The position numbers and the translations under genes are program-made. Shown here piece after piece: positions 338 to 56,533 of a stretch of 64,000 nucleotides of DNA. Each line of letters opens with the position of its first letter. The stretch's first letter is position 1. The stretch comes from Bacillota bacterium (GTDB lineage: Bacteria; Bacillota; Dehalobacteriia; UBA4068; UBA4997), in contig JAVBWO010000012.1 in assembly GCA_036677375.1 (NCBI GenBank), forward strand, positions 103,995 to 167,994, given 5' to 3'. The notes under the pieces were generated by a model. It worked only from the letters and a program-made list of their open reading frames with translations. It searched no databases and was not told where the DNA came from.

Positions 338-763
338 TCAATGCTGAACCCGGCGGGCCGGACCATCTAAAAAAGCCTGCAAAATGAATACCGCCGCCAT
401 TTTATCTATGACCTGTTTTCTTTTTTTTCGGGAAAGGTCTCCTTCCAAGAGCACCCGGTTGGCACTGACGGTGGAGAGGCGCTCGTCCTGAAAATAAAGG
501 GGCATTCCCAAGCGTTCCTTCAAGATACCGGCAAATTCCATTGCTTTTTCCGCCATAGGACCTACAGTTCCGTTCATGTTCTTGGGTAATCCGGCTACAA
601 TGCTGCCAACCTCATATTCTTTTACAATGACCGCCAAAGCCGTCAGATCATCTTCCAGGCTTTTCCGGTGAATGGTCGTGACGCCTTGCGCGGTTAACCC
701 CAAAAGATCGCTGACGGCAACACCGATGGTCTTCGTGCCGATATCCAATCCCATATAACGCAT
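338..763 (-). CDS. ruvX: Holliday junction resolvase-like protein RuvX/YqgF
   Basis: N-terminus MGLDIGTKTIGVAVSD (YqgF/RNase H-like motif). Start trimmed to MRYMGLDIG with GGAGGT RBS. Conserved position upstream of ireB-alaS. Confidence 0.85.
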   Translation of the reverse strand: MRYMGLDIGTKTIGVAVSDLLGLTAQGVTTIHRKSLEDDLTALAVIVKEYEVGSIVAGLPKNMNGTVGPMAEKAMEFAGILKERLGMPLYFQDERLSTVSANRVLLEGDLSRKKRKQVIDKMAAVFILQAFLDGPARRVQH

Positions 764-910
764 AAAAAACCTCCTACTATTTTGCAGCACTATTTTAATA
801 TTTATTTATAATATCATATGTTTTTTTGTTATTTTGAAAACACTAAATATAACGGAAGGCGGCAGGCTCCGTTTTCCAAGAGTATGCCGCCTTTTATTGA
901 ATTGCATCGA

Positions 911-1177
911 TTATTTGATATCGGAAAGATATTTTACCACCAATTCCTCTATGAGATCGTCCCGCTCCACCCGCCGGATCAGGCTTCTGGCCTGCTTGTG
1001 GCTGGTAATATAGGCAGGATCTCCGGAAATAAGATAGCCCACCAGCTGGTTAATGGGATTGTAACCCTTTTCCTGTAGGGCATAGTAAACCGAGAGTAAA
1101 ACGTCCCTGGGGTTCAACTCTTCTTCTTTGCTCACTCTGAAATTCATGGTTTCTTCCAGATTTTCTTTACCGGTCAT
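911..1177 (-). CDS. UPF0297/IreB family protein (YrzL-like)
   Basis: Motif ...[28 protein letters not shown] typical of IreB/UPF0297. Start trimmed to MTGKEN with GGGGTGA RBS. Lies between ruvX and alaS as in Firmicutes. Confidence 0.8.
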
Positions 1178-6258: not shown

Positions 6259-7347
6259 TTAATCCCACTGAGGATAACCTGTCACAAGCCAATCTTTCCC
6301 TATTTTTTGAAAATTAATGTGAGCCAGTTCTACGGCATCCTGCAATGTTGCAATACCCTGTCCGCCCAAAAGGCTCTGGGCATCATTGCCGCCAATCAGC
6401 ATAGGCCCAAAATAAAGATATAATTTATCAATTAATTTTTGATCAAAAAAAGCACCGTTCAATTGAGCGCCCGCTTCCAAAACGACGGAAACCACGCCCT
6501 TTTGATAAATATCGTACAAAAGCGCCTTAAAATCAATCCTGCCGTTGACCTCAGGACAGCAAAGCACTTTCACACCTCTTTTTTCCAGTTTTGATCTTTT
6601 GAAAGAATCGCAATGAAACGTATAAATCCAGGTTTCCGTCTGCTCCACATCACAGACATAGTTGGCCGGGTCAATCTTCAGGTGGCTGTCCAAAATGATG
6701 CGCTTGGGTTTTACACAATCCACCGCCAGACATTCCGTCGTCATTTGCGGATGATAGGCCATGATGGTGCCGATTCCCGTCAACACCGCGCCGTAACGCC
6801 AGCGCAGCTGCTGTCCATGCTTTCTTGATTCCTCTCCGGTGATCCATTGGGAAATGCCCTGATAGGTTGCGATTTTGCCGTCCACAGAGGCCGTCACTTT
6901 CAGCGCCACAAAAGGGCGCTTCTTTTCCTGGTTAACCCAGAACACCTCGTTTAACATCTTGACTTCTTCAGCTAATAAGCCCACTTCCACTTCCACACCT
7001 GCCTCGCGCAGGCGCTTGAATCCCTTGCCTTTGGCATTGGGATCGGGCGTCTCCACCGCGGCCACCACCTTGGTAATACCGGCCTGGATCAACGCTTCCG
7101 TACAGGGCGGAGTCTTCCCGAAATTACAGCAGGGCTCTAAAGTGACATAAAGCGTGGCTCCCGCCGCATAATTCCCCGCCATATTCAAAGCGTGGATCTC
7201 GGCATGGGGCGTCCCCGCTTTTTGGTGCCAGCCTTCCCCAACGATGTGCCCGTTTTTCACAATGACCGCACCCACCATGGGATTGGGCGCAGTAAAACCT
7301 GCTCCCTGGGCAGCCAGCTCCAAAGCCCGCCGCATAAAGATTTCCAT
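6259..7347 (-). CDS. ribD: bifunctional riboflavin biosynthesis protein RibD (pyrimidine deaminase / reductase)
   Basis: CMP/dCMP deaminase zinc motif HAE...PCxxC at the N-terminus and a RibD_C reductase domain at the C-terminus. Start set at ATG(MEIFMRRALELA) 6 nt after GGGAGGTG; the track start was the GTG 6 nt upstream. Confidence 0.9.
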   Translation of the reverse strand: MEIFMRRALELAAQGAGFTAPNPMVGAVIVKNGHIVGEGWHQKAGTPHAEIHALNMAGNYAAGATLYVTLEPCCNFGKTPPCTEALIQAGITKVVAAVETPDPNAKGKGFKRLREAGVEVEVGLLAEEVKMLNEVFWVNQEKKRPFVALKVTASVDGKIATYQGISQWITGEESRKHGQQLRWRYGAVLTGIGTIMAYHPQMTTECLAVDCVKPKRIILDSHLKIDPANYVCDVEQTETWIYTFHCDSFKRSKLEKRGVKVLCCPEVNGRIDFKALLYDIYQKGVVSVVLEAGAQLNGAFFDQKLIDKLYLYFGPMLIGGNDAQSLLGGQGIATLQDAVELAHINFQKIGKDWLVTGYPQWD

Positions 7348-7374
7348 TCCCACACCTCCCCGTCTTACAATTTT

Positions 7375-7608
7375 TTAAAAAAGAAAAAGCCCCCGCAACA
7401 TACGGAGACTTGAAAAGCGGTTGCGCTTACCTCTCTTGTTGAGCATCCGGGCTGTTTCTGTCAGTTTGAAATGCGCTAAGCATCTCATCAAGACAGACTA
7501 AAACATCACGGATATTTCATGGCAAAAGATCCGGTCCCCTAACAACGCTACATGGAAGAAACAGAGAAACAGCTATGATTTTCGGTTTTTTACTTTCAGT
7601 TTAAAATG
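7375..7608 (-). promoter_or_regulatory. riboswitch-like 5' leader with intrinsic terminator upstream of ribD (partial FMN/RFN-like motifs)
   Basis: Promoter, then a ~200-nt leader, then a CGCAAC...GTTGCG hairpin plus T-run, then RBS and ATG. Contains a P1-like UGUU/AACA pairing flanking GGGG and ...GACAGAAACAGCCCGGAUG (compare the FMN element GACAGU..AGUCUGGAUGG). Only one GGUGAAAUUCC-like copy (CCAUGAAAUAUCC). Confidence 0.4.
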
Positions 7609-19210: not shown

Positions 19211-19573
19211 TTATTCCCCCTTCGGTTTGAAAAAGACGGCCGCTAAAAACCCGAAAATAATGGCTGCGGAAATTCCGCCGGAAGTCACCTCAAAGACCCC
19301 TGTCAATACGCCGATGATCCCGGTACGGTTGGCCTCGTCCAAAGCGCCCTTCACCAAAGAATTGCCAAAGCTGACAATAGGTACGGTAGCTCCCGCTCCG
19401 GCCCATTCCACAAAGGGATCATAAAATCCCCAAAGGCCTAAAACCACACCGATGACAACTAATAAAGACATGGTGTGGGCCGGAGTCAGTTTCCCGATAT
19501 CCATGCAAAGCTGTCCGAAGACACAAATGGCTCCTCCTACCACAAAAGCAATCAGCACCTGCATCCAATCCAT
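19211..19573 (-). CDS. spoVAE: stage V sporulation protein AE (SpoVAEb-like)
   Basis: 120 aa membrane protein with the [13 protein letters not shown] motif. Follows spoVAD. Confidence 0.85.
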
Positions 19574-19578
19574 GAAGA

Positions 19579-20586
19579 TCAGCTCCTTTCCAAGGCTACG
19601 GCATAGGCTATACCGGGAATGCTCTCGCTTTGCTGATAGGTCAAAGGCGACATCAACGCCCCGGTGGCCACCACGAGAATCTTATTAAGCAGCCCTTTTT
19701 GCAGCTGATTCAGCAAATAACCATAGGTGACGCTGGCACAGCAACCGCAGCCGCTGCCACCTGCGAAGACGTCCTGCTTTTCCCGGTCAAAGATGATAAG
19801 TCCGCAATCGTTGAATTTGGTCTGTTCAATGGTAATCCCTTTATCAGCAAGAAGCGTCTTAGCGATCTTGTGCCCTACCTCTCCCAAGTCTCCCGTGACA
19901 ATGAGATCAAAATATTGCGGTTGGATGTTGCGATCCTGTAAGTGCCTACAAATGGCATCCACTGCCGCCGGCGCCATCGCGGCTCCCATATCGAAAGGGT
20001 CGGTGCAACCCATATCCACCACCTTGCCGATGGTGGCGGCTCTGATCTTGGGCCCCTCGCCCACATCCGCCACCACGGCGGCGCCCGCTCCCGTCACTGT
20101 CCATTGTGCGGTAGGCGGCCTTTGAGCACCGTATTCATTGGGATTGCGGAATTGTTTTTCCGCCGTATTGTTATGACTGACGGTAGCAGCCAATACCTTT
20201 TTGGCAAAGCCACAGGAAACGATCTGCGCCGCCAAAGCCAGACTTTCCATGGAAGTGGAGCAAGCCCCGAACAGGCCAAGATAAGGCAGATTGAGGCCCC
20301 GGGCGGTAAAACTGGAAGAGGTAATCTGATTCATCAGATCACCGGCAATAAAAAGATCGATATCCGAAGGCATTAGGTTTGCCTTGGTGATAGCGGTGCG
20401 TCCTGCTTCTTCCAAAAGGCTTTGTTCGGCTTTTTCAAAAGTTTCTTGCCCCAACCAGGCATCTTCGTGGATTCTGTCAAATTCACTTTTTAAAGGCCCT
20501 TCCCCTTCCATTCTCCCGACCACGGTGGCTCCCGCCAGCACTACGGGAGCATTAGGGAAGCTCCAGGTTTGTTTTCCGATGAGCAT
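19579..20586 (-). CDS. spoVAD: stage V sporulation protein AD (thiolase-like fold)
   Basis: 335 aa. KAS/thiolase-like SpoVAD signature. Sits between spoVAC and spoVAE. Confidence 0.9.
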
Positions 20587-20596
20587 AATGATCCTC

Positions 20597-21079
20597 CTAA
20601 ACAGAAAATGTCTGCCAGGCTATTTGGATCAGCCCGGCGAAAAAAGATGCCACAACGCCGTAAACGATAACCGGCCCGGCGATCTTGAACATATTGGCGC
20701 CCACACCCAGAATAAAACCTTCGCTTCTGTGTTCCATAGCCGCCGCCGTGATACCGTTGGAAAAGCCAGTGACCGGTACGGCGCTGCCGGCGCCGGCCCA
20801 CTGGGCAATATTGTCGTAGACCCCGGTGGCCGTAAGGATACTGGCGATTAAGATCAGAATGGCGGTAGCCGGCGCTGCGGCTTCTTCTTTGTCCAATCCC
20901 ACGAATATGAAAAAGAATTGTAAGAGCTGCCCGATGGCACAAATCAGGCCGCCGGCAACGAAGGCCTTTATACAATTGGTAAAAACCGGTCTTTTGGGTT
21001 GCTGCGCTTTGACTTTTTTTTGGTATTGCTTTTGTTCGCTGTCCATTTTTCCTCCGCTTTTTTGTTGATTTTTCTCCAT
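20597..21079 (-). CDS. spoVAC: stage V sporulation protein AC
   Basis: 160 aa membrane protein homologous to SpoVAC/SpoVAEb (AGAGSAVPVTGFSNG). First gene of the clostridial-type spoVAC-AD-AE operon. Confidence 0.85.
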   Translation of the reverse strand: MEKNQQKSGGKMDSEQKQYQKKVKAQQPKRPVFTNCIKAFVAGGLICAIGQLLQFFFIFVGLDKEEAAAPATAILILIASILTATGVYDNIAQWAGAGSAVPVTGFSNGITAAAMEHRSEGFILGVGANMFKIAGPVIVYGVVASFFAGLIQIAWQTFSV

Positions 21080-33952: not shown

Positions 33953-34975
33953 TTATCGGCAAAAATAGCAAACGGGGTATTTGCATACCTTACAGCCCCG
34001 GCACATGCCGCCTTCTCCCATAGCCGCAAAATCTTTTTTCGTCATTTCCACGCCCGCAAAAATCCGGGGCAAGATGACATCTAAGACCGTGGTGCGGAAA
34101 AACATGGCGCAGCCCGGCACCCCCACCAAAGCCGTTTCCCCCAAATAAGCCAGCATCGCCATATTGCCCGGCTGCACCGGCGCCCCATAGGTCACGACGT
34201 GAGCACCGCTTTGCGCGATGGCGGTGGGCGTCAAATCGTCCGGATCAACGGACATGCCGCCTGTTAAAATAATCAATTGAGCGCCTCGGTCCAGGTAGTC
34301 CCGGATCGCGGCGTTGATTTGGGTAAGATCATCGGGGCAAAGGGTCTGGCCTAAGAATTTGCCGCCATAGAATTTGATCTTCTCCTTGATCACCGGACCG
34401 AATTTATCCTCGATCCTGCCTTTATACACCTCACTGCCGGTGGTGACAACGCCGCAGGACAGGGTCTGATAGGGCAGCACATTGAATACTCTCTTTTCTT
34501 CCTTGGCCGCCAGTTCTTCCACTTCCAACAGCGCCTTTTCCGGCACCATGAGAGGCACGACCCGCACACCGGCCAGTTTCTGCCCTTTTTCCACATGATA
34601 AAAACCGGGCAGACTCGCCATAGTGACATAATCGATCAGGTTCATTTCGGCAAATACCGGAGAATTCACGGTAAAAAGACCTCTTTGCTCCGCGTATAAA
34701 TTGATTTTGCCTTCCGTAGGCTCATCATAGCTGATATTTTCTCCCGCGGTGGCTTGGGCCAGGCGGGAAGCCGCCTCGTTCTCATGCAGGAAATCTGGCT
34801 CAGGCTCCCAAACATAGATATTTTCTTTCCCGATGGAAAGCAGAACGGGAATGTCTTCTTCCGTAATAATATGGCCCTTTTTAAAGATAGCGCCTTTGAA
34901 GCCGTCGGGGATGATCTGGGTCATATCCTGGCACAATACCGTGCCGATGCTTTGTTCTACCGGAATACTTTTCAT
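33953..34975 (-). CDS. molybdopterin-binding (MoCF_biosynth/MoeA-CinA-like domain) protein with C-terminal Cys-rich tail
   Basis: GGMSVDPDD-type MoCF-binding motif. C-terminal CRGCKVCKYPVCYFCR. Last gene of the yqeC-mocA-yqeB-xdhC cluster. Confidence 0.5.
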   Translation of the reverse strand: MKSIPVEQSIGTVLCQDMTQIIPDGFKGAIFKKGHIITEEDIPVLLSIGKENIYVWEPEPDFLHENEAASRLAQATAGENISYDEPTEGKINLYAEQRGLFTVNSPVFAEMNLIDYVTMASLPGFYHVEKGQKLAGVRVVPLMVPEKALLEVEELAAKEEKRVFNVLPYQTLSCGVVTTGSEVYKGRIEDKFGPVIKEKIKFYGGKFLGQTLCPDDLTQINAAIRDYLDRGAQLIILTGGMSVDPDDLTPTAIAQSGAHVVTYGAPVQPGNMAMLAYLGETALVGVPGCAMFFRTTVLDVILPRIFAGVEMTKKDFAAMGEGGMCRGCKVCKYPVCYFCR

Positions 34976-36025
34976 TTATTTTTCCTCCTTGCGCAAGGTA
35001 ACGGGATCCAGGAACAGTTCGACGATGCCGCCGCAGACCATACCGTCCTCAGCTGCGTTTTTTCCTGTGATATCCACTTTCAGGTATCGGGGCTTCCCTG
35101 TATCCAGAGCCGTCAGGGCCTGCCGCCGCACTTCCGCCTCTACACAACCGCCGCCAATGGTATCGATACAGGTTCCGTCCGCCAATACCAGCATTTTAGT
35201 ACCGGCATCCCGGGGCGCGGAACCCTGCCGCCTGGTAATGGTCACCATGGTTTTGGGCATATCGGCAAAGGTTTCCTCTTGCAAGGCTTTTATAATCTCT
35301 TTGGGAATTTTACCGGCTTGAGATCCTTTATTTTTCTCAGCAATGATCTCCGCAAAAATGCTAATGGAGATTTCTTCCGGCGTTTCCGCCCCAATCTTCA
35401 GACCGATGGGACTATGGATACTGTTGACAAAGTCTTCCGCAAAACCCTCTGCGATCATGGCTTTTTTGACCAGAGCAACCCTGTTTTTGCTGCCGATCAT
35501 GCCAATATAGGCATGGGCTTTTCCCATGACCTGCCGGAGGCATATCTGGTCATACTGATGCCCCCTGGTCACAATGACGAAGTAATTGCCGGAGCTTTCC
35601 GGGACAGAAGCCAGCGCCTCCGTAAAATCCTGACACAATACCTGATCCGCCATGGGAAAGCGCTGAGTATTGGCAAAACTCTGCCGGTCGTCAATGATGG
35701 TGACTTCAAAACCCAGCATCTTACCGATTTGCGCCACCGGCAGCGAGACATGCCCGCCGCCGCATATGATGAGCCTGGGAGTGCCACCCAGGATCTCGGC
35801 AAAAATAACACTGTCTTCCACCTGAATCAAGCTTGGTTTTTTGACTTCAACCAAATAGGGTGCCGCTTTTTGCCAAAAATCGGCATTTGTACCCTCTACC
35901 ATATGACCGTTTTGCCTGTAAACGGACTTTCCCCCCAAAAGTTCCGGCTTTCCTTTGACGATGGTAGCCAAAACCAGCGGCTCTTTTTCCGCCCAAGCCG
36001 CCACTTTGGTATAAAATTGTTCCAT
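34976..36025 (-). CDS. xdhC: XdhC/CoxI family molybdenum hydroxylase accessory protein
   Basis: XdhC_CoxI N-domain, Rossmann-like XdhC_C (RLIICGGGHVSLPVAQ) and a second XdhC_CoxI-like segment. Confidence 0.7.
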   Translation of the reverse strand: MEQFYTKVAAWAEKEPLVLATIVKGKPELLGGKSVYRQNGHMVEGTNADFWQKAAPYLVEVKKPSLIQVEDSVIFAEILGGTPRLIICGGGHVSLPVAQIGKMLGFEVTIIDDRQSFANTQRFPMADQVLCQDFTEALASVPESSGNYFVIVTRGHQYDQICLRQVMGKAHAYIGMIGSKNRVALVKKAMIAEGFAEDFVNSIHSPIGLKIGAETPEEISISIFAEIIAEKNKGSQAGKIPKEIIKALQEETFADMPKTMVTITRRQGSAPRDAGTKMLVLADGTCIDTIGGGCVEAEVRRQALTALDTGKPRYLKVDITGKNAAEDGMVCGGIVELFLDPVTLRKEEK

Positions 36026-36042
36026 ACCTGTATCCTCCCTAA

Positions 36043-36831
36043 TTAATGCCTGGCCAGAAGCTTGTCCAAGGCCTCCAGCACACCGCCGCCGATGGCGCGG
36101 GCTTTATCCGAAACGGAAAAACAGTGTTCCACTTGACAGCGGGGATCAATATCTCCGATCTTCATGCCTTTTTCCACCATGAGCCCTTCCTGCAAGATCC
36201 CCCTTAATACCCCATCAATGGCCGCATAGACCGGAGCATCTTCTACATAAGCCAGGATCTCGTTGGCTTTGACTATATCGCCAATCTTTTTCTCGGGCCG
36301 AAAGAACCCATCCTTGGGCGCTTGAACCAGCCGTTCTATGGCATAGCCGCCCACATTGCCCGGAATACCGGTATTGGGCGCCGCTTCGCCTTGCCAAATC
36401 ACTCTGCCAAGGTGATGCCCCCGCTGAGTTTCCACCACGGCATGAGCGTCGACGCCAGCCGTAAAGCCGGGCCCCAGGGCAATGACCGCCTTGGCCTGAT
36501 GGAGGGAAGTTCCCAGATTCTTCTTGGCCAGTATAGCGTCTACCAAGCCGGAGAATTCTATTTGCTCTAAGATTCTAGCCGCGGGGTCAATAATAACAGG
36601 AACATGGCCGGCAGCCAAAACCACTTCAATTTCCGCGATATTTTTCGTCAAAATTCCTTTATGTCCTTCCACCCGGGTCTCCCCATCATAGACTGCCTGA
36701 GCAAAAGCTACCGTGCGCCGAATGACGGTGGGTTCGGCAATCTCGGTCATGACCACCTGATAGCCCGCGTTCAAAAGGCGGCAAGCCACACCGGTTGCCA
36801 GATCCCCCGCCCCTTTGATCAAAATCCTCAT
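36043..36831 (-). CDS. yqeB: selenium-dependent molybdenum hydroxylase system protein, YqeB family
   Basis: 262 aa. N-terminus MRILIKGAGDLATGVACRLLNAGYQVVMTE...PTVIRRTVAFAQAV matches my recollection of E. coli YqeB. Co-clustered with yqeC, xdhC and mocA. Confidence 0.6.
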   Translation of the reverse strand: MRILIKGAGDLATGVACRLLNAGYQVVMTEIAEPTVIRRTVAFAQAVYDGETRVEGHKGILTKNIAEIEVVLAAGHVPVIIDPAARILEQIEFSGLVDAILAKKNLGTSLHQAKAVIALGPGFTAGVDAHAVVETQRGHHLGRVIWQGEAAPNTGIPGNVGGYAIERLVQAPKDGFFRPEKKIGDIVKANEILAYVEDAPVYAAIDGVLRGILQEGLMVEKGMKIGDIDPRCQVEHCFSVSDKARAIGGGVLEALDKLLARH

Positions 36832-37003
36832 ATCGTCCCCTCTTTCTGTGTATCAGTACCATTTACCGGATTACCTGTTTGTATGCAAGCTTTCTTTGTC
36901 ATAGCGATTCCTTTGTTTAAAAAAAACGCCTCTTGGGGTTTCCAACATAGTTTTTAATGATGAAGCCCTCACCATTTTTTATTTTTGCGCTGCCTGGGCA
37001 ATT

Positions 37004-37630
37004 CTATGCCTGACACCCCTTGGGGATTCCGGGGAAAGCTGTTGTCCCCCGAATCTCTGCATTTTTCCATTTTTCATATTCTTCCGGCGTATCGATATCG
37101 ATGACCACACCGGGATCATCCACCGGTACCAGGATATGCGAATGCCGGTGGAACAATTCTCTTGCTCCGGTATCTCCTTTAAGCTCTCTTAATTCCGGCA
37201 GCAAATCGGCAGCAAATAAAACGGGATTGCCTCGCCGGCCTTGGTATACCGGAGCCACCAGAGGAATACTGTTTTCTTGATAGACATCAATGATGCGATT
37301 GACCGTTTCTTTTTGCAAAAGCGGCACATCCCCCAAACAAAAGAGGATTCCTTGGCATTCCGGTGCAAGCTGAGCCAAGCCCGCCTGAAGACTATGGCTC
37401 TGACCCATGGCATATTGGGGGCTGGCAATGATATTCCAGCCCGGCAAATTTTCCAGATGGCGCCAACGTCCCGCTTCATGCCCTAAAACCAGTATTTTTT
37501 GGGAAGCCTTGGTTTGAGACAGCATGGCAAGCGTGCTTTCCAAAACGGTAGAATGCCCCCAGGGCAGGGCCAGCTTGTTTGTGCCCATGCGGCGGGATTG
37601 TCCGGCAGCCAAAACGATCAATGAAATCAC
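37004..37630 (-). CDS. mocA: MobA-like NTP transferase (molybdenum cofactor cytidylyltransferase MocA-like)
   Basis: LIVLAAGQSRRMGTNKLALPW N-terminal motif of the MobA/MocA family. Confidence 0.7.
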   Translation of the reverse strand: MISLIVLAAGQSRRMGTNKLALPWGHSTVLESTLAMLSQTKASQKILVLGHEAGRWRHLENLPGWNIIASPQYAMGQSHSLQAGLAQLAPECQGILFCLGDVPLLQKETVNRIIDVYQENSIPLVAPVYQGRRGNPVLFAADLLPELRELKGDTGARELFHRHSHILVPVDDPGVVIDIDTPEEYEKWKNAEIRGTTAFPGIPKGCQA

Positions 37631-38394
37631 TTTTTATCCTCCCACATCTGTCTTACAAGGGGTTCATTTTGCGCCGTAGTGACCAAAACTTTCTTGATGC
37701 CGCGCCGCAAAAGCAGGGGCGCCATTTTAGCGGCTAAATCCAAACGCTCCCGGTTATCCGCTTTGTTTAAGCACACCACAAGTTCCGAATGAGGCGCTCT
37801 TCCTTTCAAGCCGCCCATTGGTGAAGTCAAGACATCGGCGGCTAATTCCGGTGTAATAAAATCCCCCAGCTTCTTGCCGCTGATGGCCGCAATTCTTTCC
37901 GGCCGGTGGCAGAAATCAGCCGATAGCGGTTGTCCCAAAGCATCCAACCCAAATACCAGTACTTGGAGTCCGGTAAAAGGCGGTACCACAGGCTCATGCT
38001 CCGCCGGGGCTTTAAAAGGCAGTCCGGCCGCACCGTCCGCTTCCACCAAAACATAAGCGCCGTGATTCAACAGCTGTAAAAGAATCGCTTCCTCCGCCGG
38101 GAGCAATTTCCCATTAATGCCCACGCCCGGCGCCACAGTAATGACCTTCCCCTTTTTTAGGGCTCTTTCCGCCTCTTCCCTTAATTCGACGGCTTCTTTC
38201 CTGATAATCACAGCGTCCGCTTCCCAGGGTGCCGGCACCCAGATCCGTGTTGTGGTGGCAACAGCCACCATTTCCCCCTGTTCTTTCAATTCTCTTGCCA
38301 AACGCCACATGAGACTGGTCTTACCCCCGCCGCCGGTGAATGCAATCAGCGTGGGCGCGTCTAGTGCCAGACATTTTAAAAACGAGTGATTCAT
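37627..38394 (-). CDS. yqeC: selenium-dependent hydroxylase accessory protein YqeC family
   Basis: 255 aa with a P-loop-like GGGGKTS near the N-terminus. 4-nt overlap with mocA. Confidence 0.6.
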   Translation of the reverse strand: MNHSFLKCLALDAPTLIAFTGGGGKTSLMWRLARELKEQGEMVAVATTTRIWVPAPWEADAVIIRKEAVELREEAERALKKGKVITVAPGVGINGKLLPAEEAILLQLLNHGAYVLVEADGAAGLPFKAPAEHEPVVPPFTGLQVLVFGLDALGQPLSADFCHRPERIAAISGKKLGDFITPELAADVLTSPMGGLKGRAPHSELVVCLNKADNRERLDLAAKMAPLLLRRGIKKVLVTTAQNEPLVRQMWEDKK

Positions 38395-52255: not shown

Positions 52256-54934
52256 TCAAGCCTTTTGGATACTTACCGCGCAGGCCTTTAATTCCGGGAT
52301 CTTCGCCTTAGGGTCCATGGCCGAATTGGTCAGGAGATTGGCGTTGCCCTCGCTGTAATGGAAGGGCATGAACACCACATCCTGCCGGATCTTTTCACTG
52401 AGCCTGGCAGTGGTTTTCAACTCGCCGCGGCGCGAACGGACCACAACCGTATCCCCGTTCTGAATGCCTAAAGCCGCGGCAGCGGTGGGATTGATCTCGA
52501 TAAAGGATTGCCCCGCCAGGCGGTTGAGACCTTCCACCTGTCCGGTCATAGTGCGGGTATGGTATTGATAAAGCAGACGGCCGGTAGTCAGGATATAAGG
52601 ATATTCCGGATCGGGCAGCTCGGCGCTGGGCCGGTAATCGGTGGCCGTAAAAAGTCCCTTGCCCCGGGAAAAAGAATCTTTGTGCAGATAAGGGGTGCCG
52701 GGGTGATGCAGGTTGGGACACGGCCATTGCAGGCTGCCCTCTTCCTCCAAACGCCGGTAAGTAATGCCGCCGTAAGACGGCGTTAAAAAAGAAAGCTCAT
52801 CCATGATATCCTCGGGAGAACGGGCGACACTGCAATAGCCTAAACCGTCCATGACCGAAAGCAGGATCTCGGTATCGGCTTTGGCGTTGCCCTTGGGGGG
52901 AATGGCCTTGCGAACCCGCTGCACACGGCGTTCGGTATTGGTGAAGGTGCCGTCCTTTTCCGCAAAAGAAGCGGCAGGCAGTACCACATCCGCCAAAGCG
53001 GCCGTCTCGGTAAGGAAAATATCCTGCACCACCAGGAAGTCAAGACTTGCCAGGGCATGCAACACATGGTTGGTATCCGGCTCGGACAAAGCGGGGTTTT
53101 CTCCCATAATATATAAGAGGGATATCTTACCGGAAACGGCGCCCTCCATAATCTCCATCACCGTCAAGCCGGGGGCTTCCGGCAATTGGGGCACTCCCCA
53201 CCAATGGGCGAATTTCTCCCGGATATTGGGATCACCGACCTTTTGATAGCCAGGCAATACATCCGGCAGACACCCCATATCACAGGCGCCTTGCACGTTA
53301 TTTTGCCCCCGCAAGGGATTGATGCCGCCATATTCATGACCGATATGACCGCATAACAATGCCAGATTGGACAAAGCCATCACCGAGTCGGTGCCGGTGG
53401 TATGTTGGGTAATGCCCATGGCGTAGAAAATACCGGCCCGTTTGGCGCCCGCATAGAGCCGGGCCGCTTTTTTGATATCTTCGGCGGCAACGCCGCAAAT
53501 CTCCGCCGCTTTTTCCGCTGTCCAATTTTGCAATAAAGCAGCTAACGCTGCATAATTTTCCGTCCGCTGGTCAATAAAAGTACCGTTCGTCAGGTTCTCA
53601 TCCAGGATCGTCCGCATCATGCCGTTAATCAAAGCGATATTAGTTCCAGGGCGGATCTGTAAAAAGACTTCCGCATGATTGCACATATCCACATAGCGGG
53701 GCTCCGCCACAATAATTTTTGCACCCTTTTGTTTTGCCTGCTTCATCTGGGCGGCAATCACGGGGTGTGCCTCTGTGGTGTTGGAGCCGATAATAAAGAT
53801 CAGGTCCAATCCTTTGACTTCCCGGATACTGTTGGTCATGGCGCCGCTGCCTAAAGTCGTTGCCAGACCGGCAACGGTGGAAGCGTGTCACAAACGGGCG
53901 CAGTGGTCCACATTGTTGGAACCGATGACGCCGCGGAATAGCTTTTGGAAAAGATAATTCTCTTCATTGGTACAGCGGGCGGAAGAAAGACCTGCTATAG
54001 ATTGCCCACCTTTGGTTTCCTTGGTTTCTTTGATCTTTTTGACCACCAAAGCGACGGCTTCCTCCCAGGAAGCCTCACGGAATTCGCCGTTTTCTTTGAT
54101 CAGGGGTTGGGTCAAACGCCGGGGGCTGTCTATGAAGTTATAACCGAATTTCCCTTTTACACAGAGCAAGCCGTCATTGGCGGGACCGGGCGCCGGCTCC
54201 ACCCCCACGATCTTGCCGCCTGAAGAAATGAGATCCAACTGGCAACCTACGCCGCAATAAGCGCAAACGGTACGGGTGGCCTTGCTTTGCGGAACCTGGT
54301 ATTGATAACCATTTTTAGGGGTTAAGGCCCCCACAGGACAATTGGAAACACAATTGCCGCAGGAAACACAGCGGGATTGATCAAGAGGCAGCAGAAATTC
54401 CGGTGAAATTTGGGTTCTCATGCCTCTGCCCACCGTCTCTATGGCATACATCCCTTGCAGCTGGCTGCATACCCGAACACAGCGGTGGCAAAGGATACAT
54501 TTATTCCGATCCAGATTGAAGAATGGATTGCTCTCATCCACGGGATAGGCCGGCGGCTTGGCGGGAAAGCTGCTTTCCCCCACGCCATACTCCCGGCAGT
54601 ATTCCTGCAGGCGACAGTGACCGGCGGCATTACAGACCAGACATTCCACTTTATGGGTGGAAAGGATCAATTCCAAAATGGTACGCCGAGCCGTCAACAC
54701 ACGCTCCGAACGGGTAAAAATCTCCATGCCGTCCATAATCTCCGTGGCACAGGCTATTTTTAAATTGCGCTGTCCCGTAACTTCTACCACGCACAAACGG
54801 CAGCTGCCATCCGGTGTTAACTTCTCCATATAACACAGGGTAGGGATGTCGATGCCCATGGCCTTGGCGGCATTTAAAATGGTCATGGGCTTTTCTGCGG
54901 TAAATTTACGGTTATCAATGGTAATGGTTATCAT
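52256..54934 (-). CDS. fdhA: selenocysteine-containing formate dehydrogenase alpha subunit (2Fe-2S + 4Fe-4S + Mo-bisPGD domains). Track ORFs 53888..54934 and 52256..53839 are one gene read through an in-frame TGA.
   Basis: The N-terminal ORF ends ...NNVDHCARL at TGA (53888-53890). The next ATG (53839) is exactly 17 codons downstream in the same frame. Read-through gives CARL-U-HASTVAGLATTLGSGAMTN, which aligns with the E. coli FdhF Sec140 region (ARV-U-HGPSVAGLHQSVGNGAMSN). A SECIS-like hairpin follows. Confidence 0.85.
53855..53887 (-). promoter_or_regulatory. SECIS-like stem-loop immediately 3' of the UGA (GUUGCC-GGUCU-GGCAAC)
   Basis: mRNA UGA CAC GCU UCC ACC GUUGCCGGUCUGGCAAC. The hairpin starts 15 nt after the UGA and has an apical loop containing GGUC, as in the fdhF SECIS. 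Confidence 0.65.
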
Positions 54935-55031: not shown

Positions 55032-55176
55032 GAGAAGCCTCCGGCCTGAGCGAATAAACTGTAGCAAAATGACGGCCTGTCTCATAATGTATAGTACAAC
55101 CTATTGGTTTGTAATAAAAGGATCACGTATCTAAATTTGAAGTTTTTGCAAATTCTAAAAAAAAGGAGGTATTGTT

Positions 55177-55362
55177 ATGTGTGGCTGTGGCTGTGGATGT
55201 GGCTGTGGATGTTTTTTCCCCTGGCTCTTTCTGCCTTTCCTCTTTTGCCGATTCGGCAACAATAATTGTTGCCAATGCTGTAATAGAACCTGCCGTAACT
55301 GCTGCTGTCAGTGTTGCTGCAAATGTTGCTGCAAATGCTGCCCTCCCCCTCCCGTGGGATAA
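55177..55362 (+). CDS. orphan cysteine-rich small peptide (61 aa, 27 Cys; CGCGCGCGCGC N-terminus, hydrophobic core, CCxCC/CCCxCCC C-terminus, PPPPVG end)
   Basis: AAAGGAGGT RBS 6 nt upstream of the ATG. Candidate TTGTAA-17-TAAATT promoter at 55109-55137. Stop followed 34 nt later by a perfect terminator hairpin. No competing ORF on the other strand. Confidence 0.6.
   Translation: MCGCGCGCGCGCFFPWLFLPFLFCRFGNNNCCQCCNRTCRNCCCQCCCKCCCKCCPPPPVG
55180..55212 (+). repeat. in-frame hexanucleotide repeat (TGTGGN)x5 at the start of the Cys-rich ORF
   Basis: tgtggc tgtggc tgtgga tgtggc tgtgga tgt directly after the ATG, encoding (CG)5C. Confidence 0.9.
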
Positions 55363-55395
55363 GTTTTTACTTAAGAAAGGCTTTTAAAAGTAAAC

Positions 55396-55425
55396 AAAGC
55401 ACCCCAAAGGGGTGCTTTGTTTGTG
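55396..55425. terminator. bidirectional intrinsic terminator (AAAGCACCCC-aaa-GGGGTGCTTT) shared by the Cys-rich ORF and the pilin operon
   Basis: Perfect 10-bp stem. GTTTGT follows on the plus strand and GTTTACTTTT on the minus strand. Confidence 0.8.
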
Positions 55426-55489
55426 GAGCAAAAGGTCTTTCAACTTTTGCAAGTTCTTATGTTTTTACAAATTCTTATGTTGGTTTGGT

Positions 55490-55960
55490 TTAGCGGGGAT
55501 AAATGCCAACGAAACTGGGGGTATCGCTATCTTCAGTGGTATACTGAACTTCGGTAACCTGAACACCATCTTCAATACTGCTATCGGCACTGACGACCAA
55601 AGCAACATAGCCGCTGAAACCGGAACCTAAGACGTTTTTCAAAGTAGGAGATACATCATTAGCAGTTAAAGTGCTGATAGGAGTCCAGTCATCCGCAGCT
55701 TCTATAGCGGCTAAGAGGTCTTCCGCTTCACCAAAGCTTGAATTACTAATCAGGTCGGCAAAAGTGGTCTGCAAGGCCAGGGCGAAGGTCTGGGCATTGG
55801 CATCTACCGCGGCTTGGCGGGCGTCGGAAACATAATTGGTCACGACGGGAATGAGGATGGCCGCCAAAATAGCGATGATGGCGATGACGACAATGAGTTC
55901 CACCAGGGTAAAGCCTTTCTTGTTCATGAGTTTGTTCATAGGATGTTTGATTTTTAACAT
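55490..55960 (-). CDS. type IV pilin (prepilin with class III signal peptide), paralog 1
   Basis: N-terminus ...KKG|FTLVELIVVIAIIAILAAILIP. Start chosen at MLKIKH after GAAGGAGGG RBS (alternative internal Met starts exist). C-terminus ends GIYPR. Confidence 0.85.
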   Translation of the reverse strand: MLKIKHPMNKLMNKKGFTLVELIVVIAIIAILAAILIPVVTNYVSDARQAAVDANAQTFALALQTTFADLISNSSFGEAEDLLAAIEAADDWTPISTLTANDVSPTLKNVLGSGFSGYVALVVSADSSIEDGVQVTEVQYTTEDSDTPSFVGIYPR

Positions 55961-56041: not shown

Positions 56042-56533
56042 TTATCTGGGATAAACGCCGATGAAGTTCAGCCCGGTATCAGTTGCGGTATCGGTGGGAA
56101 TACTCTCGCTACTGTAGCGAACTTCAGATATATCCAGCCCTGTGCTGGGGCTGCCAGTAGCGGTAATGTCAACGATACCTGTAAAGCCGGTACCCAAAAT
56201 GTTGCTAAATGTGGGGGATGCGGTTCTTAAAGCAGAAATATTCGTCCAATTGCCGGTAATAGCAGTGTCCAGAGCTGTTGCTTCCGTCAGCATGGCAGCA
56301 CGCGCCGTGGCATCGGCCGCACCCAAGCCGCTGATGAGATCAGCAAAAGTAGTCTGCAAAGCGACGGCGACAGTCTGGGCATTGGCGTCGGCCGAGGATT
56401 GGCGGGCGTCGGAAACATAATTGGTAACGACGGGAATAAGAATGGCGGCTAAAATAGCAATGATAGCGATAACGACGATAAGTTCTACCAAGGTAAAGCC
56501 TTTTCTGTTTCTCAATGGTTTGATTTTTGGCAT
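56042..56533 (-). CDS. type IV pilin (prepilin), paralog 2
   Basis: MPKIKPLRNRKG|FTLVELIVVIAIIAILAAILIPVVTNYVSDARQ... The first ~50 mature residues are identical to paralog 1. AGGAGGAAACCGG RBS. Confidence 0.85.
   Translation of the reverse strand: MPKIKPLRNRKGFTLVELIVVIAIIAILAAILIPVVTNYVSDARQSSADANAQTVAVALQTTFADLISGLGAADATARAAMLTEATALDTAITGNWTNISALRTASPTFSNILGTGFTGIVDITATGSPSTGLDISEVRYSSESIPTDTATDTGLNFIGVYPR

Follow-up and report, generated by a model that had tools for sequence, protein, structure and literature searches.

A cysteine-rich candidate microprotein gene with a conserved hydrophobic core, divergent from fdhA in a Bacillota bacterium

Introduction

What is encoded in the short interval between the formate dehydrogenase gene fdhA and the pilin genes of a Bacillota bacterium (Dehalobacteriia; UBA4068; UBA4997)? 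The interval lies in a 64,000-nucleotide stretch, here called the window (GenBank assembly GCA_036677375.1, contig JAVBWO010000012.1, forward-strand positions 103,995 to 167,994; coordinates below count from its first letter). An initial annotation, made from the sequence, had picked out in it a small open reading frame (ORF) for a cysteine-rich peptide and had described an orphan gene with its own promoter, ribosome binding site (RBS), and terminator. Whether this ORF is a gene, in which frame it is read, and what its product might do are the questions taken up here. From comparison with two diverged homologues, the ORF is very probably a genuine coding gene, translated in the frame that yields the cysteine-rich peptide (the Cys frame).

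Results

A small cysteine-rich ORF and its translation signals

The small gene is placed between divergent fdhA and convergent pilin genes, in a window whose genes are nearly all on the minus strand. It comprises the following features.

55161 to 55170, forward strand: RBS AAAGGAGGT(A), with GGAGG at 55165-55169, inside AAAAAAAAGGAGGT, 7 nucleotides (nt) 5' of the ATG
55177 to 55362, forward strand: coding sequence of the 61-amino-acid (aa) microprotein MCGCGCGCGCGCFFPWLFLPFLFCRFGNNNCCQCCNRTCRNCCCQCCCKCCCKCCPPPPVG, TAA stop included, by ORF check (reference lineage, FdhA identity 100%)
55180 to 55212, forward strand: in-frame (TGTGGN)5.5 repeat encoding the N-terminal (CG)n (TRF: period 6, or 2.8 copies of 12)
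55213 to 55248, forward strand: hydrophobic core FFPWLFLPFLFC, conserved in three lineages
55249 to 55359, forward strand: tail RFGNNNCCQCC…KCCPPPPVG, basic, acid-free, Cys-rich, and of low complexity by composition and repeats
55312 to 55341, forward strand: second in-frame repeat, of 12 nt, in the tail (TRF)
55392 to 55422, usable on both strands: hairpin terminator with 14-bp perfect arms (55392-55405 and 55409-55422) and a 3-nt loop

The translation matches exactly the peptide quoted in the initial annotation, and the sequence bears out the ORF itself, its GGAGG RBS, the in-frame (TGTGGN) repeat, the hairpin after the stop, and the placement relative to fdhA and the pilin genes. Other details required correction. 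Cysteine accounts for 23 of 61 residues (38%; 12 TGC and 11 TGT codons), not 27. The perfect hairpin does follow the stop codon; its arms measure 14 bp rather than 10, and it can serve either strand. The proposed promoter, TTGTAA-17-TAAATT (55109-55137), agrees with the consensus at 8 of 12 positions, was not reported by a sigma-70 scan, and is not conserved, lying in a stretch that is indel-rich in the relatives described below. Finally, where no opposing ORF had been seen, short antisense ORFs of 50 and 35 aa, both with TTG starts, are present.

No other ORF in the window has at least 8 cysteines in any 30 residues, and the composition is therefore judged not to be a product of chance. The sequence AGGAGGT is likewise scarce, with only nine occurrences on both strands of the 64-kb window. 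A-runs and T-runs flank the hairpin on both sides, and by reading the minus strand has the better T tail; the hairpin is thus not exclusive to the ORF and, judged from its sequence, can also terminate the convergent pilin operon, which ends at 55490.

Homologues in two related lineages

Homologues were found by synteny: relatives were sought with an N-terminal fragment of FdhA, and the DNA upstream of their fdhA genes was then inspected. The best matches were P0003 (87% identity) and P0004 (74%), followed by one at 58%. The gene described as an orphan has two diverged homologues in these related lineages.

L012, 7607 to 7726, reverse strand: homologue MFGCGFGCFWPWLFLPWIFCNRRCCCCCHHHHHHGQGCC, 87% FdhA identity, preceded by AAAAAAAGGAGGT
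L014 (lineage L014-L017), 696 to 959, reverse strand: homologue MCGGCCWLWPWLFWPFFWGGWGWRRGCWNGCTCWNNGWNNGWNNNCNNSCNSWNNNCTCSNNWNNGYNCY (MCGGCCWLWPWLFWPFFWGGWGWRRGCWNGC…NCY), starting from an internal ATG at 908, 74% FdhA identity, after AAAAAAGGAGGT

Like the window gene, both lie upstream of fdhA, with matching position and orientation. L012 reproduces the gene order of the window (pilus operon, pilin, small gene on the opposite strand, fdhA); in L014-L017 the far flank differs, and the position upstream of fdhA still holds the homologue. Among FdhA relatives of 58% identity or less, fdhA lies inside an NADH-dependent operon with no divergent small ORF. In a genome-contig collection scanned with FdhA, which does not contain the genome of the window or its close relatives, the best match reached 56% identity and lacked a small ORF.

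Common to the three lineages are an invariant RBS, AAAAAAGGAGGT, and an ATG, preserved while the flanking DNA has diverged, with the ATG 7-8 nt after GGAGG in each case. The ORFs span 39-70 codons and share the peptide motif M-x-G…[FW]PWLFxP[FW]x[FW]; the core reads FWPWLFLPWIFC and LWPWLFWPFFWG in the relatives. Between ATG and core, the repeat tract is 12 and 15 nt shorter in the relatives, so that the indels are in frame. Tandem repeats occur inside all three ORFs, always with periods that are multiples of 3 (3, 6, and 12 in the tails of the relatives). The anticipated in-frame variation in repeat length thus exists between lineages; within lineages, no variation was seen among the two to four near-identical contigs available for each. 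DNA identical to the window occurs on two Logan contigs, and the automated call of the window gene described below was made there. The expectation that homologues could be recovered was likewise borne out by way of synteny; their cysteine spacing is unconserved, and their tails differ wildly.

Each homologue has its own hairpin 3' of the gene. The hairpin after the L012 gene is related to that of the window, and a second L012 hairpin adjoins the pilin gene; after the L014 gene stands an unrelated hairpin with a T-run, and the next L014 gene has its own sigmaA-type promoter. Together these arrangements indicate that the gene is monocistronic in all three lineages. The leaders of the relatives (L012, 7740-7870, reverse strand; L014, 925-1040, reverse strand) contain about 55 extra nt that are partly alike and form small hairpins, are missing from the window, and gave no Rfam match.

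The Cys frame as the coding frame

The 13-codon core was compared between all three pairs of lineages, with the following differences per pair in each frame.

Cys frame: 4, 4, and 3 synonymous; 4, 7, and 7 non-synonymous
+1 frame: 1, 1, and 1 synonymous; 7, 10, and 9 non-synonymous
+2 frame: 1, 1, and 1 synonymous; 8, 10, and 9 non-synonymous

Counted by position in the Cys frame, 7, 9, and 7 differences fall at the third codon position and 3-4 at the first and second, and the +2 frame contains a stop codon in L012. The synonymous bias, the in-frame indels, the repeat periods, the ATG spacing, and the conserved motif all support a gene read in the Cys frame. That the ORF is a real gene, as first proposed, is further upheld by conservation of the RBS, ATG, core, and an upstream block (see below), and by the presence of a terminator.

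Automated gene calls settle on the +1 frame in all three lineages, with a start 4 nt after the ATG (GTG 55181 in the window, 7722 in L012, 904 in L014) and Ala/Val/Gly/Ile-rich products of 68, 47, and 100 aa; a second "100-aa" call, in L016, is an unrelated protein. All three forward frames are open across the repeat, and a +1-frame ORF of 68-71 aa overlaps the entire gene. Were the callers correct, the real gene would be the Ala/Val-rich 68-aa ORF from GTG 55181 and the Cys frame a by-product, a reading to which the agreement of the calls and the openness of the frame in every lineage lend some weight. We consider it very improbable. The +1 products share almost nothing across lineages, with 1 synonymous against 7-10 non-synonymous differences in the core, and they begin at GTG or TTG, 11 nt from GGAGG, against 7-8 nt for the conserved ATG. 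The 68-aa product has no relatives and matched only itself. Its synonymous codon usage scores -0.07, like that of an off-frame ORF, where real genes score 0.13 +/- 0.06; the Cys frame has an intermediate score, and codon usage alone could not select the frame. An open +1 frame is moreover expected, by reasoning, from a composition of TGY, GGN, TGG, and AAY codons alone. Since callers pick the +1 frame, the microprotein family is missing from protein databases.

A conserved hydrophobic segment and a variable tail

All three proteins begin with 20-24 uncharged residues, comprising a Cys/Gly stretch and then [FW]PWLFxP[FW]xF. The first charged residue is an arginine, at position 25, 22, or 24, and it stands as Arg or Arg-Arg (25, 22-23, 24-25). 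None of the three proteins contains Asp or Glu. On the Wimley-White octanol scale, their best 19-residue segments sum to -11.8, -15.4, and -18.6 kcal/mol. Since the uncharged segment has the length of one membrane span and is followed by arginine, we infer an N-terminal membrane anchor whose C-terminus, by the positive-inside rule, would lie in the cytoplasm.

The tails differ in composition. That of the window combines Cys with Gln, Lys, Asn, and Arg and ends in PPPP; that of L012, CCCCCHHHHHHGQGCC, runs CCCCC-HHHHHH-GQGCC; and that of L014 is made up of Asn, Trp, and Gly with scattered Cys. They can be aligned in part (CNRTCRNCCC in the window, CNRRCCCCC in L012), and each has its own short tandem repeats. 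Cysteine content falls from 38% in the window protein to 26% and 16% in the relatives, and the extreme value is lineage-specific. Across the alignment, the conserved and apparently selected part is the hydrophobic core, which the initial annotation had treated as secondary, and not the cysteines. What selection seems to preserve is the anchor, together with a tail composition that is polar, basic, and thiol-containing, rather than the tail sequence.

A conserved block upstream of the RBS

In an alignment of the spacer from fdhA to the ATG in the three lineages, four islands are conserved: the fdhA -10 region, the fdhA -35 element TTGACT (AAAAGTCAAGAGA on the strand of the small gene), a block TGTCTCATAnnnTATAGTACAACC, and the RBS. 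The block is located as follows.

55078 to 55102, forward strand: conserved upstream block TGTCTCATAATGTATAGTACAACC, a candidate promoter, with CATAnnnTA at 55083-55091 and TATAGT at 55090-55095

It is the sole conserved element between the fdhA -35 and the RBS, occurs once in the window, and is invariant in the three lineages save for the central nnn columns (CATAATGTA, CATAAATTA, CATACAGTA). The DNA between block and RBS is indel-rich, giving a leader of variable length (75-130 nt). The block also lies at varying distances from the fdhA -35 (46, 40, and 42 nt), which argues against a phase-dependent activator site for fdhA and favors a promoter of the small gene itself.

No sigmaA -35 accompanies the block. 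In all three lineages, it contains a sequence that fits the CATAnnnTA type of -10 element used by the mother-cell factors sigmaE and sigmaK. In B. subtilis, the sigmaK consensus is AC-17-CATAnnnTA. By reading of the alignment, AC at the 17-nt spacing is limited to L014, with GC in its place in the window and L012, and ATA is not present. In C. difficile, sigmaE and sigmaK promoters have very similar -10 elements, for example CATATAAT, and differ at -35 (ATA for sigmaE, AC for sigmaK) (PMC3789822). Assignment of the block to sigmaE or sigmaK is accordingly put forward as a hypothesis. No mother-cell genes usable for calibrating the promoter motif were found in the window.

Other sequence features were noted around the gene. 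A motif recurs in three exact copies, all flanking it.

55144 to 55156, forward strand: motif TTTTGCAAATTCT (TTTTRCAARTTCT), between the promoter region and the RBS
55445 to 55457: second copy, past the terminator
55463 to 55475: third copy, in tandem with the second at an 18-nt period

The rest of the window has one further match, at one mismatch, and 0 of 100 shuffles reached four matches. In the predicted mRNA fold (z-score -2.5), the GGAGG of the RBS (55165-55169) pairs with CCUCC in the PPPP codons (55343-55355). This pairing was rejected as a conserved feature, the proline run being missing from the relatives, and is probably incidental. An Rfam search of the window and the related loci found no riboswitch, leader, or small RNA at the gene.

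Database searches

The Cys-frame peptide is absent from a collection of 15 billion proteins and has no relatives among 5.8 billion clustered proteins. Among 1.84 billion representatives, the sole match, P0122, is an unrelated 660-aa tandem-repeat protein and was dismissed as spurious. For none of the three homologues did Pfam or NCBIfam return a family at E <= 10, a PDB sequence search gave no meaningful match, and tblastn against plasmids gave none. We also derived a strict degenerate DNA pattern spanning RBS, ATG, and core, which recovers all three variants and was run on metagenome and viral contigs, not on the genome collection. It matched nine metagenome loci, all by chance (eight out of frame, one unrelated), and none among the viral contigs. 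On these searches, the microprotein fits no described family, as had been suspected. The known members of its family are limited to three sequence variants, from related lineages of spore-forming anaerobes within a single narrow clade that is apparently uncultured.

Genomic neighborhood and host

One flank of the small gene carries fdhA, with N-terminal Fe-S domains, and then fdhD; the other carries two pilin genes, pilT, pilB, and a prepilin peptidase gene. In the window and L012, the immediate neighbors are fdhA and pilin genes; in L014, a weak radical-SAM gene, not conserved, lies beyond fdhD. Further observations in the window and the related loci are these.

53888 to 53890: in-frame TGA that splits fdhA into ORFs of 348 and 527 aa
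53835 to 53893, reverse strand: SECIS_3-like element overlapping the fdhA TGA (E 6.7e-7, below the Rfam gathering score)
about 34976 to 38394, reverse strand: maturation cluster for selenium-dependent molybdenum enzymes (xdhC-like, yqeB, mocA/ygfJ-like, yqeC)
33953 to 34975: gene with a molybdopterin-synthesis domain
19579 to 21079, reverse strand: spoVAD and spoVAC, with spoVAE probably at 19211-19573
55490 to 55960 and 56042 to 56533, reverse strand: tandem pilin genes with near-identical N-terminal halves
L016, 39 to 512, forward strand: DtxR/MntR-type metal-dependent repressor gene, about 1.2 kb from the small gene, with two unrelated genes between

The TGA and SECIS arrangement recurs in L012 and L014, and fdhA is thus read as encoding a selenocysteine formate dehydrogenase. 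The presence of spoVAC and spoVAD points to an endospore-forming Firmicute. L012 has a single pilin gene (6933-7430) against two in the window, which suggests a recent duplication beside the small gene. The DtxR/MntR-type gene arrangement of L016 is absent from the other lineages.

Discussion

The locus is best described, in our view, as a genuine monocistronic microprotein gene whose product would be a membrane-tethered, thiol-rich tail for soft metals or cross-links, a reading of the sequence to which we give an even chance. In all three lineages, the comparison shows the conserved block followed by the variable leader, the perfect Shine-Dalgarno (SD) sequence, the ATG, the ORF, and its own hairpin terminator. 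The N-terminal span would anchor the product, with the following arginine holding the C-terminus in the cytoplasm, where the thiol-rich tail could bind soft metal ions or form disulfide or metal cross-links. The tail sequence may turn over through in-frame repeat slippage, with the anchor and the composition kept by selection. A metallothionein-like role of the tail, one of several suggested by the initial annotation, is plausible on its composition, and the L012 tail (Cys run, His6, GCC) resembles known Ni/Zn-binding tails. The CATAnnnTA-like block and the spoVA genes also keep alive the sub-hypothesis that the gene is expressed by the mother cell during sporulation and that its product serves in the spore envelope. 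We also entertain, with considerable reserve, a broader proposal: a new bacterial class of N-terminally anchored microproteins with a metallothionein-like Cys/His tail rebuilt in each lineage by slippage, which might act as a membrane-tethered store or buffer for soft metals or selenium, or else prime cross-linking in the spore coat. Wrong-frame reading by gene callers would keep such a class systematically out of sight. The idea of a selenium or metal store stems from the richness of the organism in selenocysteine, Mo, and W enzymes and from the persistence of the gene beside the selenocysteine fdhA.

Several observations weigh against this interpretation. With just three sequence variants, the statistics on selection are thin. 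Synteny with fdhA may reflect inheritance rather than function. The hydrophobic segment contains two prolines and many Gly and Cys residues, and a single-sequence AlphaFold prediction was not confident (mean pLDDT 56) and showed no helix in that segment. The L014 tail is mostly Asn, Trp, and Gly with few cysteines, which weakens a pure metal-binding role. As to the promoter, the -35 AC of sigmaK is confined to L014; the block can also be read as a sigmaA-like -10, TATAGT, and as an imperfect palindrome, TGTnnnATAnnnTATnnnACA, unique in the window, which could be the operator of a regulator.

The closest competitor overlaps with the membrane-tethered tail proposed here and differs in the primary role, which would be structural cross-linking rather than metal binding. 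In it, a spore-envelope microprotein would be expressed from a mother-cell promoter of the sigmaK or sigmaE type, its N-terminus seated on the forespore outer membrane or the coat and its tail disulfide-linked into coat or exosporium. The conserved CATAnnnTA block without a sigmaA -35 and the endospore-forming host are consistent with this, a tail selected for composition over sequence would suit a structural or cross-linking material, and Cys-rich proteins recur as building blocks of clostridial and Bacillus spore envelopes (PMC6101409, PMC7333573). Set against these points, the promoter assignment rests on a 6-base motif, with the -35 AC in one of three lineages; Pfam and NCBIfam show no similarity to known coat proteins, the L014 tail is poor in cysteine, and no sporulation genes adjoin. 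We rate it as unlikely. Less probable still is that the ORF is regulatory or without function, either a sensor of cysteine or Cys-tRNA supply or a young proto-gene kept by drift, with a peptide that does nothing. Polycysteine short ORFs do act as cysteine-responsive attenuators in mycobacteria (bioRxiv 10.1101/834739), the family is limited to a narrow clade, and its tails consist of slippage-prone repeats. A sensor would, however, have nothing to regulate downstream on the same strand: all three loci have a terminator, after which the window and L012 continue with a convergent gene, and L014 has a separate sigmaA-like promoter before its next gene. The cysteine bias is also unconserved (38%, 26%, and 16%), whereas the non-Cys core PWLFxP appears to be under purifying selection, so that the peptide itself would matter.

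A membrane-active peptide of the type I toxin kind, with translation repressed, for example, by antisense RNA, ranks slightly lower again. Its attractions are the small size, the N-terminal span-like segment of 20-24 residues with a basic tail, the intergenic position overlooked by annotation, the leader of variable length, and the convergent neighbor. Sigma-70 consensus scans of the three loci detected no promoter antisense to the gene, although such scans cannot exclude one; the L012 gene and the pilin operon have separate hairpins and thus no conserved antisense overlap; and the SD is not sequestered in a conserved manner, its pairing with CCUCC being confined to the window. To our knowledge, Cys-, His-, or Asn-rich tails are not typical of type I toxins. 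The initial annotation had further raised a precursor of a ribosomally synthesized and posttranslationally modified peptide (RiPP). SCIFF, ranthipeptide, and other Cys-rich precursors were considered and rejected: no maturase gene is common to the three loci, and no NCBIfam family matched. On the sequence evidence, the type I toxin, the Cys-sensing leader, the RiPP precursor, and the +1-frame gene are all less likely than the membrane-tethered microprotein.

The locus illustrates how a conserved microprotein, mis-framed by standard annotation in three lineages, can be absent from databases of billions of sequences. Small ORFs rich in Cys, Gly, Trp, and Asn codons leave the +1 frame open and more gene-like, and the same error may hide other low-complexity microproteins.

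Comparison with known systems

Metallothioneins and metal-storage peptides, for which we take SmtA/BmtA, Helicobacter Hpn, and the tails of SlyD/HypB as comparators, share with the window protein a cysteine content of 30-40%, CC, CxC, and CCC patterns, Lys and Arg, and a tail free of aromatic residues; its size and cysteine count are close to those of mammalian metallothionein. These comparators differ in being soluble, with no hydrophobic anchor, and the microprotein shows no sequence or profile similarity to them and no conserved Cys pattern among its three homologues. Membership in the bacterial metallothioneins (Pfam Metallothio_Pro and related) was rejected, given the lack of a profile match and the N-terminal hydrophobic segment. 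The YjcZ or "tiny transmembrane" sporulation proteins of Bacilli are similar: they are tiny, often poorly annotated, come from spore formers, and have a hydrophobic core between low-complexity stretches of the Gly/Cys/Tyr type. Their core is aliphatic, against PWLFxP here, and the family was set aside, NCBIfam giving no families at E <= 10.

The spore proteins CdeC/CdeM, CsxA, and CotY/ExsY are likewise Cys-rich, expressed in the mother cell, and found in spore-forming Firmicutes (PMC6101409, PMC7333573), and the microprotein gene has a mother-cell-type promoter-like block. They are larger (about 150-400 residues), self-assemble, and have no sequence similarity to the microprotein, whose spore link is putative. 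Mycobacterial polycysteine ORFs resemble it as unannotated short ORFs with runs of Cys codons; they differ in being leaderless, in having few codons, and in lying upstream of the Cys-metabolism genes that they attenuate (bioRxiv 10.1101/834739). The microprotein gene has a strong SD, a long leader, its own terminator, and nothing downstream, and conservation in it falls elsewhere than on the Cys run. A polycysteine attenuator was rejected, there being neither a co-oriented downstream gene for the ORF to control nor a conserved Cys run.

The nearest architectural parallel is offered by the CYSTM proteins, which are very small, combine one span-like segment with a Cys cluster and a low-complexity region as the window protein does, and are implicated in stress and metal tolerance (PMC2804304). 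They are exclusively eukaryotic and tail-anchored, with a C-terminal, Cys-rich span, whereas the anchor here is N-terminal, the cysteines belong to a separate polar tail, and the host is bacterial; with these differences and no Pfam match, membership in CYSTM was rejected. If the proposed architecture is true, the microprotein would be a bacterial analogue, unrelated by descent, of small eukaryotic membrane proteins rich in Cys, and in it a conserved anchor would carry a composition-selected tail that evolves by repeat slippage.

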